Assembly (NCBI GenBank): GCA_023920165.1
Contig: CP089275.1
Location: 4,526,001-4,590,000, forward strand
Length of the DNA stretch: 64,000 nt
Source of the DNA: Curvularia clavata
Taxonomy: Eukaryota
Direction of reading: 5' to 3'
The notes under the pieces are model-generated. The model was not told the DNA's origin and did not search any database. It saw nothing but the letters and a program-made list of their open reading frames with translations. Below, piece by piece: positions 45,644 through 58,881 of this stretch (the stretch's first letter is position 1; each line of letters begins with the position of its first letter). The translations under genes and the position numbers were made by a program.

Positions 45644-48414
45644 CTACGACTTGATAAGATTACCGCGTTCGTCGTCCGTTTCCTCTTCCTCACTGTCGGT
45701 TTCGTATTCGCTCTCCTCCTCGCTCTCATCTTCTTCTTCCTCGTCCGTCTCTTCTTCGTCCTCCGTGTCCGTCTCTTCCTCATCATCATCGTCGCCTTCT
45801 TCCTCCGCTAGCCAGTCATCGAGCGTCTTCTCCTTGAGCGGTGCTTTGGGCATACCGACACCCGCATCTCCACCCAAACCGTTCAAGCCTCGTGGGCTCA
45901 TGCTTTGATCGGCCATCATTCGCCCACTGCTGCCTGCCGCTGCATCTAGCCTGTCGGCCGCCGACATGTTCTTTGCAGTTTCATACGCCGACACGTAGTT
46001 TGACGAGGACGTCGACACAACTTCGTCGCGTAGCGCTGGATCTGGTTCATGGCCTTCTTTGACCCAGCGAGGCAGGTCTTCGTATCCTTTGAGTCCCCCG
46101 ACGCCACCTTCGTCGCCAACAACCAGGCTGGCACTTCCCAACACATAGTCTTTTCGCGTTTCACTTGGACTTGGAATGTGCGGCACGGGTTTGGGTGCGA
46201 GAAGAAGCAGTGAGGCGAGCTGTGTCGAGGTAGGCGTCGCGAGTAGTGCCTTGTATACGCGAGCACGGTCGCGGAGGTCATACGAAGTGTCGTATCTTAC
46301 CAACAAAAGAACGTAGTTGTACAATGCCTCGATGATATGTGGCTTCTCCTCCTCTTGGATATCGTTTTTCTGGGCGAGAGCATCGAGAGGCTCGTCTCTA
46401 AAACCACCTTGTTCTTCTTGGAGACCGTCCATTAGAGATGGGTTCGGCTTAGGCTCTTCTACCTTGGGTTCCGGAGGTGGGTTAGCCGCCAGGTGGTGCA
46501 CATAGACCTTGGCCGCCAACAACACAATCTGGAGCTTCGCTGGCTCTGCTTCATCAGCAAAACCTTTGACCAGGATACGGAGGACGTCTGCAGCAATGTT
46601 GTTCTCTGGATCAAGGCCAGCAAATTCTCCAACTAGCCAGATGATGCTTGCACGAGCCTGAGGGCTGGTGGCTGCATCAAGATGCTTTGCTAACCGGATA
46701 ACGGTCGTGCGATGGGCATCTGGATCCCGTTGGATCAAATGACGGATGACCTCCAGGGACTCAGCTACCAGATGGGCATCGGCAGAACCAATGTGCTTGA
46801 GCAGCAACTTCAGACATCTGGCTGAGGTCTGCGGACTGGTTGCAGGACTCTGCGAGCAACGTCCAATTGCGCGTACAGACTCTTTAACCAACGCTAGATC
46901 TAGACTGCCAGAGTGGGAGAAATGGCTCAACTCGGCAAGTATCAAACTTTGTAACCTGACGTGCGCATGAGGGAATATTAACGTAAGGAGCTCAAGCTTC
47001 AGCTGCCATATATGTGGCGCGTCGGTAGATCGTACTAAGAAATGCGTGTAGTACTTCACAAACGGCTCGGGGTGCGCCAAGCAGACCTGCACGATGTTGT
47101 ACAGTGCTACGTGCTGGATGTCTCCTGCCGACCGGAGTAGGGAGATCAGCGGTCCAATGGCTTGGGTCAGGTACTCAGGTGTGCCAAGATAGAGATAAGT
47201 CCTGGCTACCGCTATTACGACTGCAGCGTTTCGAGATTGGAGTAGCGATTGGCAGCCTTTTAGCAACAACTCCAGGTCAGGGTCTAGCACAGCAATTTCC
47301 TCCATGTCCTGCTCTTGCTCATCTTCTTCGGATTCACTCTCCGAATCATCATAGAAACCCTTTGTAGATTGCGTAAGTTTGCTGCCCGTCTTGACGCCAG
47401 CCAATTTCTTGACCTTCTTGGTTCGCCGGGGAAAGCATTTTCGTGCGTAAACCATCATCAATCTCAACGTAGCCAACTGTCCCCATTCGTCCATGTCGAC
47501 AAGTTTCCGTACCAAAGCACGATAATGCGGGTGTATGAGGTCCAAGCGATCCGGACATAGCTCCAGGAACGATGCCACAGCGGCTCCGGTGACAAAATAC
47601 TGCTTGTCTCCCAGCAACGTCGACAGATATTCCAGCAGCTGAGGTTCGGTATTGGGGTCCAGCCGGTAGCACTTTGGGATTGCCAACGCCGCTGCCCTCC
47701 TCACATATGGCGACATATCTCCAGCACCGCGCTTGATTCCCAGGCTCACAATCTGGCTGATGACTGGTACCCGTATGCTTGACATGACCCGCAATGCCAA
47801 TGCGCGCAATTGCGGGTTCGTGTCGGTGAGCGACTTTTGTATGGTATTGATAGAAAGAAGAGCGGTATCTGGTTCGTGCTCGGCATGGTGGAGAAGGTAT
47901 ATGTAAACGAGCTTCTTGACCTGGAGCGAGGGCGAGGCGACATTCTTGATTACATGGGAGAAAAAAGGTAGTGTTTGTGCGAGGGGTTGTCGGTACGACA
48001 TCTAGAGGGGCTACAGTCAGTTACTACACGTCCCAACGCGCGCCATCTGTACTGAGATGGACCGAGTTCATGGCGGGGCAGGCATACAGTAATGACCCTC
48101 CGGAGCCCTTCCAAGACATCGCGCTCGGATCGGCTGTCGAGAAGCTTCTTGAGCTGGCTTGAGGGAAGCTCCCTAGTGGGCGCTCGGCGGACATTGCTGG
48201 CATCGCGGGCAGCTTCGAGGGTAAGGTCGCGCGCTGCAGAAAGAGACCAGTGAGCAAAGCTGGATGGATGCATTGTAACTGCGCGGAGCAATTACATATT
48301 CAAAGCCCCTGGGGCGCAGAGGGCAAGTGTACAGGAATTTCAGAAAGAAAGGAAAACAGAGAAAGGCGCCATACCTGTCTCCAACAAGCTCGATATCCGA
48401 CTGATGGATTCCAT
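45644..48414 (-). CDS. APL6: AP-3 adaptor complex beta subunit
   Basis: MESISRISSLLET|ARDLTL.., VKKLVYIYL, ALLSINTIQKSL, DMSPYVR, DMDEWGQ, YDTSYDLRDRAR and an acidic tail; two 5' introns. Confidence 0.93.
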
Positions 48415-49731: not shown

Positions 49732-50512
49732 TTATGACCAATCCTTCTTGATGTCGAAAGACCACTTGAACTGCAGGTGGGTTTGGTTGTCGTCGTCGAC
49801 GAACTTGGACAGGGCCGTGTAGTGGCCACGGCCAAGCATGCCAGAGGGAGCGGTTTCGGGTTCGACTGGGAGATGAGTTAGTAGGGTGACGTGGCAGTGT
49901 GTTGCAGAGTAATGTACGTACACTTCTTCTCGTAAAACGGCTTCTCCTCAGTGTTGGGGCCATATGAGCCCTGTTGTGTTGGTCAGCACACACATGTACA
50001 AGTACCAGCATAGCGAAGAAGACGTACCATCATCTCCTGCAGCTTGTCACTGACACCCATGCGGGTGACCCTCTGGAGGTACTTGAGACCAGCCAGAATC
50101 TCGTGCTGGACCTTGAACTGGACCTTCATGCGGAAAACAGCACCCTCTTTGATGGTGAAAGGCTTCTTCTCGAGGGCCTCGACGGCGCCAGGAGCGCGCA
50201 AATCGATGATGATGTCGGGGCGGCCTTCTACCTCGAGACCGAGGGAGAGGATGATGCACTTGCGAGGGTCATTGGGGTCGGAAATGTCCTTGCCTTGTCC
50301 AAGACCAAGGGAGGCCTTCCACTTTTGCAGAGACTCATCGTTCTGGTCTGTGGCGGTCAGGGTCAGCGAGCTGTAGCGGAGCGTTTTGCAGCGGGCAGCT
50401 GTGCTAGGAGCTGTCACGTACCTAGCTTCTGGTACTCGTCAATGGTCTTCTTCTCGCCGACCTTGAAGCCCTCGGTCTGCTCGGCGTGGAGGTCGTCTGC
50501 GTGGTCGGCCAT
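49732..50512 (-). CDS. RDI1: Rho GDP-dissociation inhibitor
   Basis: GFKVGEKKTIDEYQKL|DQNDESLQKWKASLG, FTIKEG, GSYGP, APSGMLGRG and WSFDIKKDW; three introns. Confidence 0.95.
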
Positions 50513-53307: not shown

Positions 53308-53974
53308 TGACATTGTTATATCCCTGGTTTTCATCTCGCTTTTTCTTTTCTCCTCTTTATTTAAACGAACATTCCAGCGCCATGTGTCTTGGGTTTTACT
53401 TTTGGGGGTTTCGCTCGGATTCGTTGGAATGTTTAACCCTCCGCCCCTCCTTCTCTCTTGGAGAGAAGATACCATAACCACGTTTTTTCTCCAAATGTAC
53501 TACTTTTTCTCCCTCTCTTTGCTTTTCCACTCCACGGCGTATAGGAGGGAAAGAGGCTTTCTGTGATCTAGTGTTATGTACGTCGTCCGCCTCCTTTAGC
53601 ATATGATGGGTATGTATGGGGCTCATGGTAATTGTTTTCTAGTCCGCACCTGCACTTGTAGTAAGAGTGTCGTAGCTGCGCCTGCGCCTGCATCCTACGT
53701 AAACTTCAGGGCCCAAATAAAACTCGCAGCTATAGAACTTGTCTTCTCCAATCTCATTTCATTCAGGTTCACCCCAATCAACAAACTAACATGTTATCAA
53801 GGCGCCAATTGCTCCGCTTCACAGGCTGCTAGTATCAGCCCGTGTCGTCAGCAGCAGTAGCACCAGCAGCCCACAACCCCATCCTACATTATAGTAAAAC
53901 TACTACTTTCAAAAGTATTTGTGCTTGCTACAGTAATCTCTCACCCTCTCCCCGAAAACGACCAGGACAAAACC

Positions 53975-56211
53975 TCATATACCCTTACTTCCCCCTTCAC
54001 CAGCCAACTCACCCACCTTCCGCACTGCCTCTTCGTAATCATCAAAGGCATATATCGGCAGTTTCGCCTCGGCCAACACCTTCTGTCCCAGTTCCTCATT
54101 CGTCCCCCTCAAGCGTACCACCACCGGCTTCTCAACCCCGACATCTCGAAACGCGAGTATGATCCCTTCGGCAATCATATCGCAAAGCGTGAGCCCACCA
54201 AAGATATTCACAAAGACGACGCTGACACGGGGATCAGCGAGAAGCAGCTTGAAACTCGTTTTGATGGTCGCAGACGTGGCTTTACCGCCTGTGTCGAGGA
54301 AGTTTGCAGCAGACGTGGATGAGGGTGGGGAAGAGAGGCGCGAGGCAAGAGTGTCGATGGTGTTGAGGGCGAGGCCTGCGCCGTTGACGAGAGTGCCAAC
54401 CAGGTTTTTGGGCTTTGGTGAAGACGAGGATGATTCGAGTGGTATGTATACGATCCCAGCTTCTTCTGCTTCGCGGTCGGCGGCAGTGAGGGCTGTCTCG
54501 TCACGTAGGGCGTGCAGGTCGACTTGTCGCTTTGCGGATTTGAAGGCTGCGTCGTCGAAGAAGAGGTAAGGGTCGTAGAAGAGGAGCTCGTCGCTTGAGA
54601 CTGATAGGGCGAGCTTGAGGTGGGCGTCTATGGCTTCGTGGGTTGTGTACAGGTTCCAGAGATTGTGGATAGCTTGCACGAGTTGAGATTTGGACTTGGG
54701 TGGGAGAGCGGAGAGTTGCATGTGGGCGGTTGCGGCAGCGATGGCGGACGGGCTGGGGCCGGTGCGGTAGTCGAAGGGGAAGCGGCGAACACGGTGGGAC
54801 AGTTGAGAGGATTCGGCTGTCGGAGCGGCGATGATGGAGGGAGAGCGGGCGGAGCGGGCGGGGGAAATTCCCAGGTAGTGGGTTGACGGGGAGCCTTCTG
54901 GGGGAATGCCAAGGTCGATGCCAAATGATTCAAGAAGCTTTGTCGATTGTTCTTTTGTGAGGTGGAGTGAGCGTGTTTGCAGAGATGGGCCCGATGAAGA
55001 GGAACTTAGAACAACAGGCCTTCTCCTCAGAGATGTATGATAGGAGCGGCGTTGCTGGGCTGCTGACTTTTCCTGGAAGCTGTCAGCACATGCAGAGTAC
55101 ATGCGTTTTTTTTCCCGAAGGTATGAGCCTACAATTTTTCTTACGTTGCGACCAGACTTTGCAAGAATATCTTTCATCACTCCCCCAAACTTTGCTGGGT
55201 GATCAACCATGGTCACGCCAGCACTCTCCAAGGCCTTGTATTTTGACGCGGCAGTGCCTTCTCCAAGGCCTACCCAAGCTCCAGCATGGCCCATAACCTT
55301 GCCGGATGGTGCTTGGAAACCTCCAATGACAGCGGCAATTGGTTTGGGATTTTGAGCACGCTTTCTGTAGTCTCTAATCCAGTCTGCCGCCTCTTCTTCG
55401 GTGGTGCCACCAAGTTCGCCGACGATGATAATAGCCTCTGTATCTTCATCATGCTCAAATACTTTGAGAGCATCCACGAAGTTTGTGCCTGCTATCACGT
55501 CTCCGCCAACTGCAATACATAAACTCTGTCCGAGCCCAGCTCTGGTCAACGAGGCCACAGTCTCGTAGGAGAGTGTCCCGGACTTTGCTACAACGCCAAT
55601 GTGACCGGGGGAAAAGGTGGGCAAGGGTTGAAAGCCAATCCTGCATTTTCCAATGGCCGAGATTATACCTGGGGCATTTGCGCCTACAAGTCGTGATTTT
55701 GACTGGGATTGTAGCATGGAGTGGATCTCGTGGATATGTCAGCCTTTGTTTCTAAAATGTTGTCTGGAACTATGTTACTCACTCTCATCATGTCATGGAG
55801 TGGTATGTGTTCAGCCACGGCAACGATAAGCGGCACCTCTGCCTCTATTGCTTCTTCAATTGCAGCAGTTGCTTGATGAGCAGCAACGTAGATTCCCGTG
55901 GCATCGGGCTTGAGTTGCTCCATGGCTGCTCTTACCGAGGGCAGAACGGGCAGTCCCAGATGCTCTCCTGAGCCATTGGGCTTCACACCGCCGACTACGT
56001 TTGTCCCCCATTCTATCGACTCTTTTGCATTGGCTGTAGCCTGCTTGCCTGTGAATCCCTGGAAGATGACACGGGTGTGGGAGCCAATCTTGAGGTTGTG
56101 GATGGTATGGTCGTAGTTTGTGCGCTTGGCTGTGGTAGAAAACAAGGCTTGCCGTATCCGGTGCCCAGGGCTCCGTAGCCTACACAGGGTGTGTGCCTGG
56201 GGACAGATCAT
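53975..56211 (-). CDS. Succinyl-CoA synthetase alpha subunit fused to a degenerate beta subunit (mitochondrial)
   Basis: Alpha: VIFQGFTGKQAT, EHIPLHDM, KSGTLSYE, GELGG, MGHAGA. Beta: GTLVNGAGLA, ANFLDTGG, VNIFGG, VVVRLRGTN. Introns 55727-55782 and 55073-55132; presequence-like N-terminus. Confidence 0.9.
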
Positions 56212-57258
56212 GGTAGATGTGACGTGACGAAGGGTGAACGTGCGTCTTCAAGTACGCGTCATGGAATGATTGGCTGGCAGCTGGGACAAGAAGAGTTACA
56301 CAAACCAGTCCGAGCCAGACTCCTGTTGCATGCGGCCAGGTGTCTAAGAAGCGTCTTCCAAGTTTACCGTCTCAATGCCTCTCGCAGTTTGAGATGGTGT
56401 ATGTAGTCTTTCTTCAACTTGGCGCCATGTGCCTGAGTAGCCGATGCGCACTGGGCGGCGGTTGTATGCAAGTAGCCGACAGTACCCCTCATCCTCATGC
56501 ACCCGGTCCTCGGAGCTTGTCGGGAGGCGCCCTTAGACGTCGGCACACATGCCAGGTCGCATGTCTAGTATGCATGGTATTATTTTTCCCGCTTGTACCA
56601 CGAGGAGCCCTGCATGATGACAGCGAGAGCCGCCTTGGGCAGACATGGGCTCCTTTGCGTCTACTGGGAACTCGTCGGTGGCGCTGGTCTCGTCAGGATA
56701 GTCGTCTTTCCGGCTGCGAAACAAACGAGCACATGTATTTTATTTCTCGATGCCTCGGCTGGCTGCGGAATGCTGGATTGTGGGCGGGCATCGGATTCAT
56801 GTGTGGTGCAAGTTCCTTGCATGCTTACCCCGGATCCACGGGAGTGGGTCGCGTGACGTTGCTGGCGGTGACTCGCGTGGTCCCTTCGACATCATCCGCC
56901 AGCTGAATCAGGACATTCACAGCCCCCGCGACCTCGTCCACCGCCTCCTACTCGTCCACGCTACCCGCTAACTCTGGCACGGGGCCTGGCCATCATCATC
57001 GACACTGTCATGATGAGCCGCGACGGGTCATGGCGCGGAAGCGGGACGAGTCGAACGACATTATGCCCCGACGGCCCTTTATGTCTTTGGCCGTTTGCCC
57101 ATGCCCGGTTCTTGTTGTATCGCCCTTCTTTTTTCTTGTTTCTTCTTCCTGACGACTGTGACTTTGTGGGGCCTGGATGTGAGCTGCTAACAAAACTACT
57201 CTTCCTTCCCGTCACTAGCTCAACTACCCAAATCCCGTGGGCCTCCTAGGCAGTCATC

Positions 57259-58881
57259 ATGCTTCCTCACCTGCTCCTCCTTGCCGGCCTCGTCCCCTGC
57301 GCCTACACATTATCAATACCACGTCTTCCTTCTCTTGCAAGCTTCGCTGCTGCAGGCCGCTGGCAACAACAGGAGCCGCTTCAAGACACTCTTGATGCCT
57401 GGATACAACACGAAGAGCGCATTGCGCTAGAAAAGCTGCTCGCCAACGTTGCGCCTGGAGGCAGAAATGTCCAAGGCAAAGGTGTGGCTGAGGGCACAGT
57501 CGTTGCGAGCCCCTCTCAAGATGGCCCCGATTACTGGTTTCAATGTAAGTATCTCAACAACGTCATCTGCAACGCGTGCTAATTGTCACAAGGGGTCCGC
57601 GACGCTGCCATCACCATGGATACCCTCGTCCATGTCTACGCTGACGACCCCTCGTCTTCGCGCGCATCTGCTCTGTCCATTATCCTTGATGCATACACCT
57701 CCCTCCAAAGCGAAATTCAGCACACTTCAAACCCGTCGGGTACATTCGACGACCTCTCTGGATTAGGTGAGCCCAAGTTCCGCGTGGACGGAAAGCCATT
57801 CACCGGTTCGTGGGGAAGACCACAACGCGACGGGCCAGCTCTCCGCGCACTGACGCTCATGCACTACCTCCGTGAATACAATGCATCACATCCTTCGTTG
57901 TGGAGCTCTCCCAACTCGGAGGACTTTTTTGGGACTTTTTATACTGCCGAGATGCCTCCGCGCAGTATCATCAAAGCAGATCTCGAGTACGTGAGCCACT
58001 TCTGGAACCAGTCTGGATTCGACCTCTGGGAAGAAGTTGAGGGTCTGCATTTCTTCACCCTCATGGTCAGCGCCAGAAGTCTGAGGGAAGGCAGTCATCT
58101 TGCAAGATCCTTTGGCGATGCAGGTGCGGCAGATTGGTACCAAGAACAAGCTGGGTACGCTGAGAACCTGTTGCGCAAGTTCTGGAATGCACAAAAGGGA
58201 CATCTCGTTGAGACGCTATGGAGCAAGAGGAGCGGTCTGGACTGTGGATTGCTTCTTGGCTCTTTGCACGCCCTTCCCAAGACCGCATCTGAGGATCATG
58301 CTGTCTATCCGCCATGGTCGGATGAGATTCTGATTTCCCTCCTCGCTTTGACTCGCGATCAGCGTGACCGTTTCCCCATCAACAGCAGCCCAGCCGACCA
58401 AGACGACGAAGACGAGGTGGATGAAACATCGTTTCAAGGAACGGGCATTGGCCGCTACCCTGAAGATGTATACGATGGTTACGGAAACTCGAATCGTGGT
58501 GGAAACCCATGGTTCCTATGCACATCCTCTGCCGCTGAGATCCTATACCGCACTGCGTCGCACATAATATCCACCGGTAGTTTGACCATTACACCGGTCG
58601 GTCTTCCCTTTTACGAATCGCTTCTTGCTAGCTCCACTCTTGACGTCGACCTCGGTACCTTTGGCCCTTCTGATGCCCTCTTCCACTCGGTCATCGAGCG
58701 CCTACAGAGTGCCGGTGACGAGTTTCTCCAAGTCGTGAAGACACATGTTGATACCGAAGGCAGCATGAGTGAGCAATTTGACCGGGTGACTGGGTACATG
58801 AGGGGCGCCGAAGATTTGACCTGGAGTTACGGTGCTTTCCTGCAGGCTGCTAGAGCTCGAAAGATCTCTATGCAGCCCTGA
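57259..58881 (+). CDS. GH15 glucoamylase without starch-binding domain
   Basis: Signal peptide; VASPS, YWFQW|VRDAA, LGEPKF, WGRPQRDGPALRA, FDLWEEV, IGRYPEDVYDG, SEQFDR and DLTWSYG; the protein ends without a CBM20. Confidence 0.93.

Follow-up and report, generated by a model that had tools for sequence, protein, structure and literature searches.

Succinyl-CoA synthetase (SCS) is recognized by motifs with established roles, namely the phospho-histidine, the catalytic glutamates, the power helix and the nucleotide-binding motifs. Mitochondrial precursors that give rise to two proteins are exemplified by Arg5,6 of Saccharomyces cerevisiae, for which Friedl et al. 2020 (PMC8734313) define the R-2 motif of the mitochondrial processing peptidase (MPP) and prove R-S-Y as the cleavage site. 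Its authors know of no fusion of this kind, other than Arg5,6, that unites functionally related proteins and is widely conserved, and the composite precursors they list include no SCS (‘succin’ is absent from the main text). Here we describe a gene at 56211-53975 of the minus strand of a 64,000-nt stretch of Curvularia clavata contig CP089275.1 (the window), in which an SCS alpha subunit is fused to a beta-like half through a presequence-like linker.

Gene structure and support for splicing

One spliced gene encodes a presequence, the alpha half (alpha′), a presequence-like linker and a beta half lacking its nucleotide lid (beta′). It has three exons and specifies 706 amino acids, with a single terminal stop after in-script splicing; all of its features lie on the minus strand. 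Exon 1 (55783..56211, aa 1–143, ending at the splice joint) carries the predicted N-terminal mitochondrial presequence (∼aa 1–31, 56119..56211, assigned by composition and disorder with an approximate cleavage point) and the CoA-binding domain of the alpha half (Pfam CoA_binding, E 4e-19). Exon 2 (55133..55726, aa 144–341) carries the remainder of the alpha half, including E247 (55417-55415) and the phospho-histidine H290 (55288-55286), and exon 3 (55072-53975, from the spliced translation) the linker and the beta half. Intron 1 (55727..55782, 56 nt) has a GT donor and an unusual GAG acceptor and is spliced out in contigs from 4/4 runs. Intron 2 (55073..55132, 60 nt), which sits at the alpha/linker junction immediately before the linker, is spliced out in 3/4 runs. 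The initial annotation of this DNA had described a single reading frame. This holds after splicing; in the unspliced sequence intron 1 shifts the frame, and intron 2 is in frame and free of stops.

The splicing evidence consists of assembled contigs from four runs (24 listed), none recorded as RNA, of which the spliced joints were used. Run X5 gave a 2,961-nt contig that spans 53704-56780 and contains the fusion gene alone, a contig of run X9 bridges the alpha/beta junction and the X1 contig reaches into neighbouring genes too. Two letters next to the intron 2 joint differ in the strains of the spliced contigs. That spliced contigs bridge the junction agrees with the single gene and transcript proposed initially, although assembled contigs cannot prove one transcript. 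A gene-model artefact was ruled out by these contigs and the stop-free spliced frame.

The paralogue search covered the fungal genome of 8 contigs (32 Mb) and located canonical genes for both alpha and beta elsewhere, as well as an ATP-citrate lyase-like locus. The fusion gene is therefore an extra paralogue. Its product is annotated in the databases as an ordinary SCS alpha subunit.

The alpha half is complete and the beta half lacks the nucleotide site

Pfam, Foldseek and alignment together identify in the alpha half the CoA-binding fold and phospho-histidine of a nucleoside diphosphate (NDP)-forming SCS. The MGHAGA phospho-histidine motif lies at 55294-55277, and both it and the two linker motifs considered below were found where the initial annotation had placed them. 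E247 and H290 are invariant in 100/100 orthologues (alignment A1), both catalytic glutamate positions being conserved throughout, and Foldseek matches the alpha half to human SUCLG1 with a TM score of 0.95 by target and 45% identity.

The beta half (aa 377–706, ∼35 kDa; 53975..54967 with the stop codon) contains the conserved NGAGLA, FLDTGGKA and NIFGG motifs and has the beta C-terminal domain with its power helix, without a complete ATP-grasp nucleotide site. Its first helix is joined directly to the second ATP-grasp subdomain, leaving it ∼86 residues shorter than the canonical beta of the same genome. Alignment with the latter places the deletion point, where the ATP-grasp lid with its K-A-Q-V and GGRGK motifs is gone, at 54917..54922, and the EINP and DAK motifs are substituted relative to canonical beta. 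Pfam ATP-grasp_2 gave no match in the fusion protein, the TIGR01016 score was 152.7 bits against a cut-off of 375.55 (searched exon by exon), and neither GGRG nor E[IV]NP was present among the full-length fusions (0/217 in each case). The initial description of a complete alpha subunit joined to a beta-like half was therefore correct for alpha′ but overlooked the missing lid and motifs of beta′, and the interpretation built on it is only partly supported.

Other parts of the beta half are strictly maintained. The NGAGLA power helix is found in 100/100 sequences, and the power-helix and acid-pocket motifs as a group in 97–100/100. Within FLDTGGKA the fusions have an invariant, family-specific lysine where canonical beta has glycine. 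Because the beta half is without the nucleotide lid and motifs, and canonical subunits are kept separately, the product is not an ordinary SCS; judged by its motifs, it falls outside SCS yet keeps the CoA/acyl-phosphate half-site.

A conserved linker with two candidate MPP sites

The linker (aa 342–376, 54968..55072) is disordered in the AlphaFold2 (AF2) model, as is the N-terminus (pLDDT <50 over aa 1–27). It contains two candidate MPP sites: site 1 at R350-S351/Y352 (55040..55048; motif RRSY/HT at 55051-55034) and site 2 at R375-S376/L377 (54965..54973; motif TRSL/HL at 54976-54959). The check by orthologue alignment that had been suggested for these motifs came out positive. It used 100 of 223 full-length fusions, chosen for breadth and complete gene models, a choice that favours intact linkers. 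At site 1 the conserved residues were Q (93), R (100), H (98) and T (95 of 100), and at site 2 Q (91), R (97) and L or I (96), against a mean top-residue conservation of 34/100 in the spacer columns.

The linker was also confirmed to be rich in arginine and poor in acidic residues: its core has 20% Arg and 1% Asp/Glu, compared with 5% and 11% in the mature parts. This matches the composition of the N-terminal presequences of the family (15% Arg, 18% Arg/Lys, 0.6% Asp/Glu), and just 248 of 55,760 mature windows were as basic. The site-1 pattern was present in 85/100 linkers and absent from all 61,262 mature positions, and shuffled linkers contained it at a rate of 0.16 per 100; as the pattern was written after inspection of the data, the comparison with shuffles is descriptive. 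In the unpicked set of full-length fusions, from which 6 Fusarium models had been removed beforehand, the R-x-hydrophobic-H-[TS] motif was found in 194/217. The locus shows three features of an Arg5,6-type composite precursor: one gene and frame for two proteins (from the assembled contigs), an N-terminal presequence (by composition and disorder alone) and, where the halves meet, a conserved internal segment that resembles a presequence and carries an R-2 motif.

Origin of the fusion

Searching with a Fusarium beta-like half gave 112 new matches, among them 86 free-standing fungal beta paralogues of ≤470 aa (free beta2). A profile of the presequence end, built from 65 of these 86, ranked site 2 first of all windows in 93/100 fusions, and the mature-part columns alone still placed it top in 87/100. 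The beta N-terminal stub did not align in plain BLASTP, whereas the profile test did succeed. Site 2 is therefore the ancestral beta presequence end, in keeping with the earlier proposal that a beta gene was fused together with its own presequence.

Quick trees grouped the fused and free beta2 sequences together and apart from canonical LSC2 (SH-aLRT 99), and united the alpha halves of the fungal fusions within the eukaryotic alphas (SH-aLRT 96). Both have long branches and SH-aLRT support only, and we claim no order of fusion events. The sequences place the origin of the fusion in a duplicated fungal alpha2/beta2 pair, not in LSC1/LSC2. GGRGxG is retained in just 20 of the 86 free beta2 proteins; the nucleotide site has thus been lost repeatedly within the beta2 clade.

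In the Fusarium solani complex and F. decemcellulare, seven models (P0289-P0291, P0343, P0348, P0357 and P0363) apparently represent adjacent same-strand alpha2 and beta2 genes merged by annotation, with beta2 having its own methionine and presequence. This arrangement is possibly the pre-fusion state. DNA of the Fusarium tandem pair was not recovered in a metagenome scan, and the adjacency is known from protein models only.

Distribution and fusions in the other order

The first search returned 1,437 matches among 8,000 candidates, and the architecture of 398 proteins was resolved into 269 alpha-beta, 35 beta-alpha, 73 alpha-only and 21 beta-only forms. Carriers of the alpha-beta fusion, which we take from their genera to belong to six classes of Pezizomycotina, the Dothideo-, Eurotio-, Sordario-, Leotio-, Lecanoro- and Pezizomycetes, include A. 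niger and A. oryzae; there is also one Mycena. This basidiomycete copy (P0125, Mycena indigotica) is nested among Pezizomycotina fusions and has a very compact two-motif linker. In two Aspergillus models (P0402 and P0438) the fusion runs on into the adenylylsulfate kinase gene downstream, probably through misannotation.

Beta-alpha fusions were found in Taphrina, Savitreella and lichens. The same motif type was present at the junction in 7 of 9 delimited fungal beta-alpha fusions (the others being one near miss and Trichosporon, without the motif; one undelimitable sequence and 10 cluster duplicates were excluded) and in 0 of 10 bacterial-type fusions (two identical and two over-long; 5 others could not be delimited). 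As the motif stays with the junction irrespective of which subunit lies behind it, we infer that it is a processing signal. Two of the reverse-order sequences, P0286 and P0287 (Savitreella and a relative), consist of a lid-less beta, an alpha and an adenylate kinase domain, presumably AK3-like, and are possibly triple precursors.

A model for processing and function

We propose that the precursor is imported and that MPP would then cut at R350-S/Y and/or R375-S/L, giving chains of ∼34 and ∼35 kDa. The linker data make cleavage at one or both sites very probable; the fixed 1:1 stoichiometry that the initial annotation expected from it is conjectural. The cleaved alpha′ and beta′ would probably stay together as an SCS-shaped heterodimer, and it is highly likely, from the motifs lost, that this heterodimer could not bind NDP or nucleoside triphosphate itself and is hence no Krebs-cycle SCS. 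Only the CoA/acyl-phosphate/phospho-histidine half of the SCS cycle would then run. For cleavage and a non-canonical function jointly, we put the probability at roughly 60%.

The chemistry itself can be suggested only tentatively: either a CoA transferase that exchanges acyl groups without nucleotide, or a phosphate-dependent acyl-CoA hydrolase, the substrate being some dicarboxylate distinct from succinate. The leading substrate candidates, though weakly so, are branched C5 acids, for example itaconate; they are much less certain than cleavage and function. In eight Hypocreales models (seven Trichoderma and one Torrubiella; P0506, P0540, P0554-P0556, P0561, P0562 and P0565) beta2 is merged with an upstream hot-dog dehydratase, and the merged Torrubiella model matches the itaconyl-CoA hydratase 8KHG (E 1e-19). 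More speculative still is the wider suggestion that Ascomycetes might have a second, SCS-derived mitochondrial phospho-histidine CoA transferase/hydrolase without a nucleotide site, fused in both orders and cut by MPP at a retained presequence in each.

Several observations weigh against this model. The literature searched yielded neither proteomic nor biochemical signs of cleavage, and a Podospora proteome supplement (PMC10886707) names canonical SCS subunits only. The site-1 pattern is missing in 23/217 models, although about half of these are models without a linker. The hydrophobic moment of the linker is barely above that of shuffled sequences (0.60 versus 0.56); the N-terminal presequence is similarly weak (0.61 versus 0.54). 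A highly diverged beta-alpha fusion from Trichosporon (P0275) has an acidic, motif-free linker and may stay uncut. As for the substrate, the hydratase merges involve free beta2 only, other beta2 merges bring in a sirtuin (Colletotrichum), a short-chain dehydrogenase/reductase (Ilyonectria) and further neighbours, and the hydratase-like gene of C. clavata lies ∼3.3 Mb from the fusion gene. The window holds no metabolic gene cluster, the neighbours being unrelated: an adaptin-type (AP complex) subunit (45644-48001), a Rho-GDI (49983-50438) and a GH15 glucoamylase (57250-58881). Itaconate turnover in A. niger has already been assigned to IctA/IchA (PMC6862759).

The missing cleavage data would also suit a single chain that persists, with the linker as a relic presequence or an uncut binding motif. 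The AF2 single-chain model folds confidently (pTM 0.88) with a loose linker of 32 residues, and cleavage is therefore structurally unnecessary; ATP-citrate lyase and the bacterial fusions function uncut. However, a relic would not hold Arg(−2) at 100/100 and 97/100 beside a drifting spacer, and the motif type recurs in the reverse-order fungal fusions and not in bacterial-type ones, so that we consider a persistent single chain unlikely. The same low likelihood applies to the idea that cleavage frees alpha′ to pair with canonical beta (LSC2) as an SCS of altered specificity, with beta′ left as a chaperone or inhibitory pseudo-subunit. That alpha′ has all catalytic residues and beta′ is predicted not to bind nucleotide, in a genome that has a canonical beta, would fit such pairing, which would also explain why cutting matters; the power-helix and acid-pocket motifs and the invariant lysine of beta′ argue instead for a catalytic role beside alpha′.

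Slightly less plausible again is a ligase in trans, in which a second enzyme, an AK3-type or NDP kinase, takes over the phosphate of the phospho-histidine and stands in for the lost lid. The adenylate kinase domain carried in-chain by the two lid-less Taphrinomycotina-type fusions P0286 and P0287 points this way, but these are just 2 sequences from one lineage, AK3 could be a mere co-imported passenger or neighbour, and we know of no phospho-histidine chemistry for adenylate kinase. Very improbable is the view that two genes or transcripts have been mis-joined and that translation of beta′ begins at a start codon of its own. It draws on those Fusarium solani-complex ‘fusions’ that resemble merged neighbours, each with a methionine and presequence, and on ATGs inside intron 2. 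Against it, the spliced frame is stop-free, spliced contigs span the junction, and a methionine upstream of site 1 is found in only 11/100 linkers. An internal start in intron 2 was rejected, as its methionine is not conserved.

If cleavage at the linker is real, the SCS fusion would join Arg5,6 as the second MPP polyprotein of wide conservation, and if the proposed function is right, the SCS fold would have a new kind of chemistry. The family is present in tractable fungi (A. niger and A. oryzae), and separate genes, alpha-beta and beta-alpha forms offer natural controls for studying why precursors of this type persist and are processed. Whether or not it is cleaved, the conserved SCS-like enzyme combines an intact phospho-histidine centre with the loss of its nucleotide site, and its annotation as ordinary SCS alpha may mislead fungal metabolic models, possibly those of organic-acid turnover.

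Comparison with known systems

No description of the alpha-beta fusion was found in the literature searched, which did not extend to subscription journals. Its free fungal relatives (beta2 in Fusarium, Trichoderma and Colletotrichum; beta-alpha fusions in Taphrina, Savitreella and Xanthoria) belong to the same clade and share the presequence-end motif. These are database-annotated only, are separate or in reverse order, and many keep the lid, often in degenerate form. Bacterial-type beta-alpha SCS fusions and ATP-citrate lyase likewise hold both SCS-type halves in one polypeptide, but in reverse order, with intact ATP-grasp motifs, with no MPP-type motif and outside the fungal clade.

With mitochondrial SCS (SUCLG1 with SUCLA2 or SUCLG2, PDB 6G4Q and 2FP4; LSC1/LSC2) the fusion shares the alpha fold, the phospho-histidine loop and the beta C-terminal domain. 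It differs in being one precursor, in the ∼86 ATP-grasp residues and the GGRGK, EINP and DAK motifs absent from its beta half, in its altered acid-pocket motifs and in being a paralogue beside the canonical genes. With Arg5,6 it shares a fungal nuclear gene, an N-terminal presequence, a second stretch of presequence character between the halves, the R-S-Y motif and halves that lie, or here would lie, in a complex. Cleavage is proven for Arg5,6 and predicted for the SCS fusion. Its halves are also subunits of one enzyme, its two motifs lie ∼24 residues apart, and its relatives exist as alpha-beta fusions, beta-alpha fusions and separate genes.
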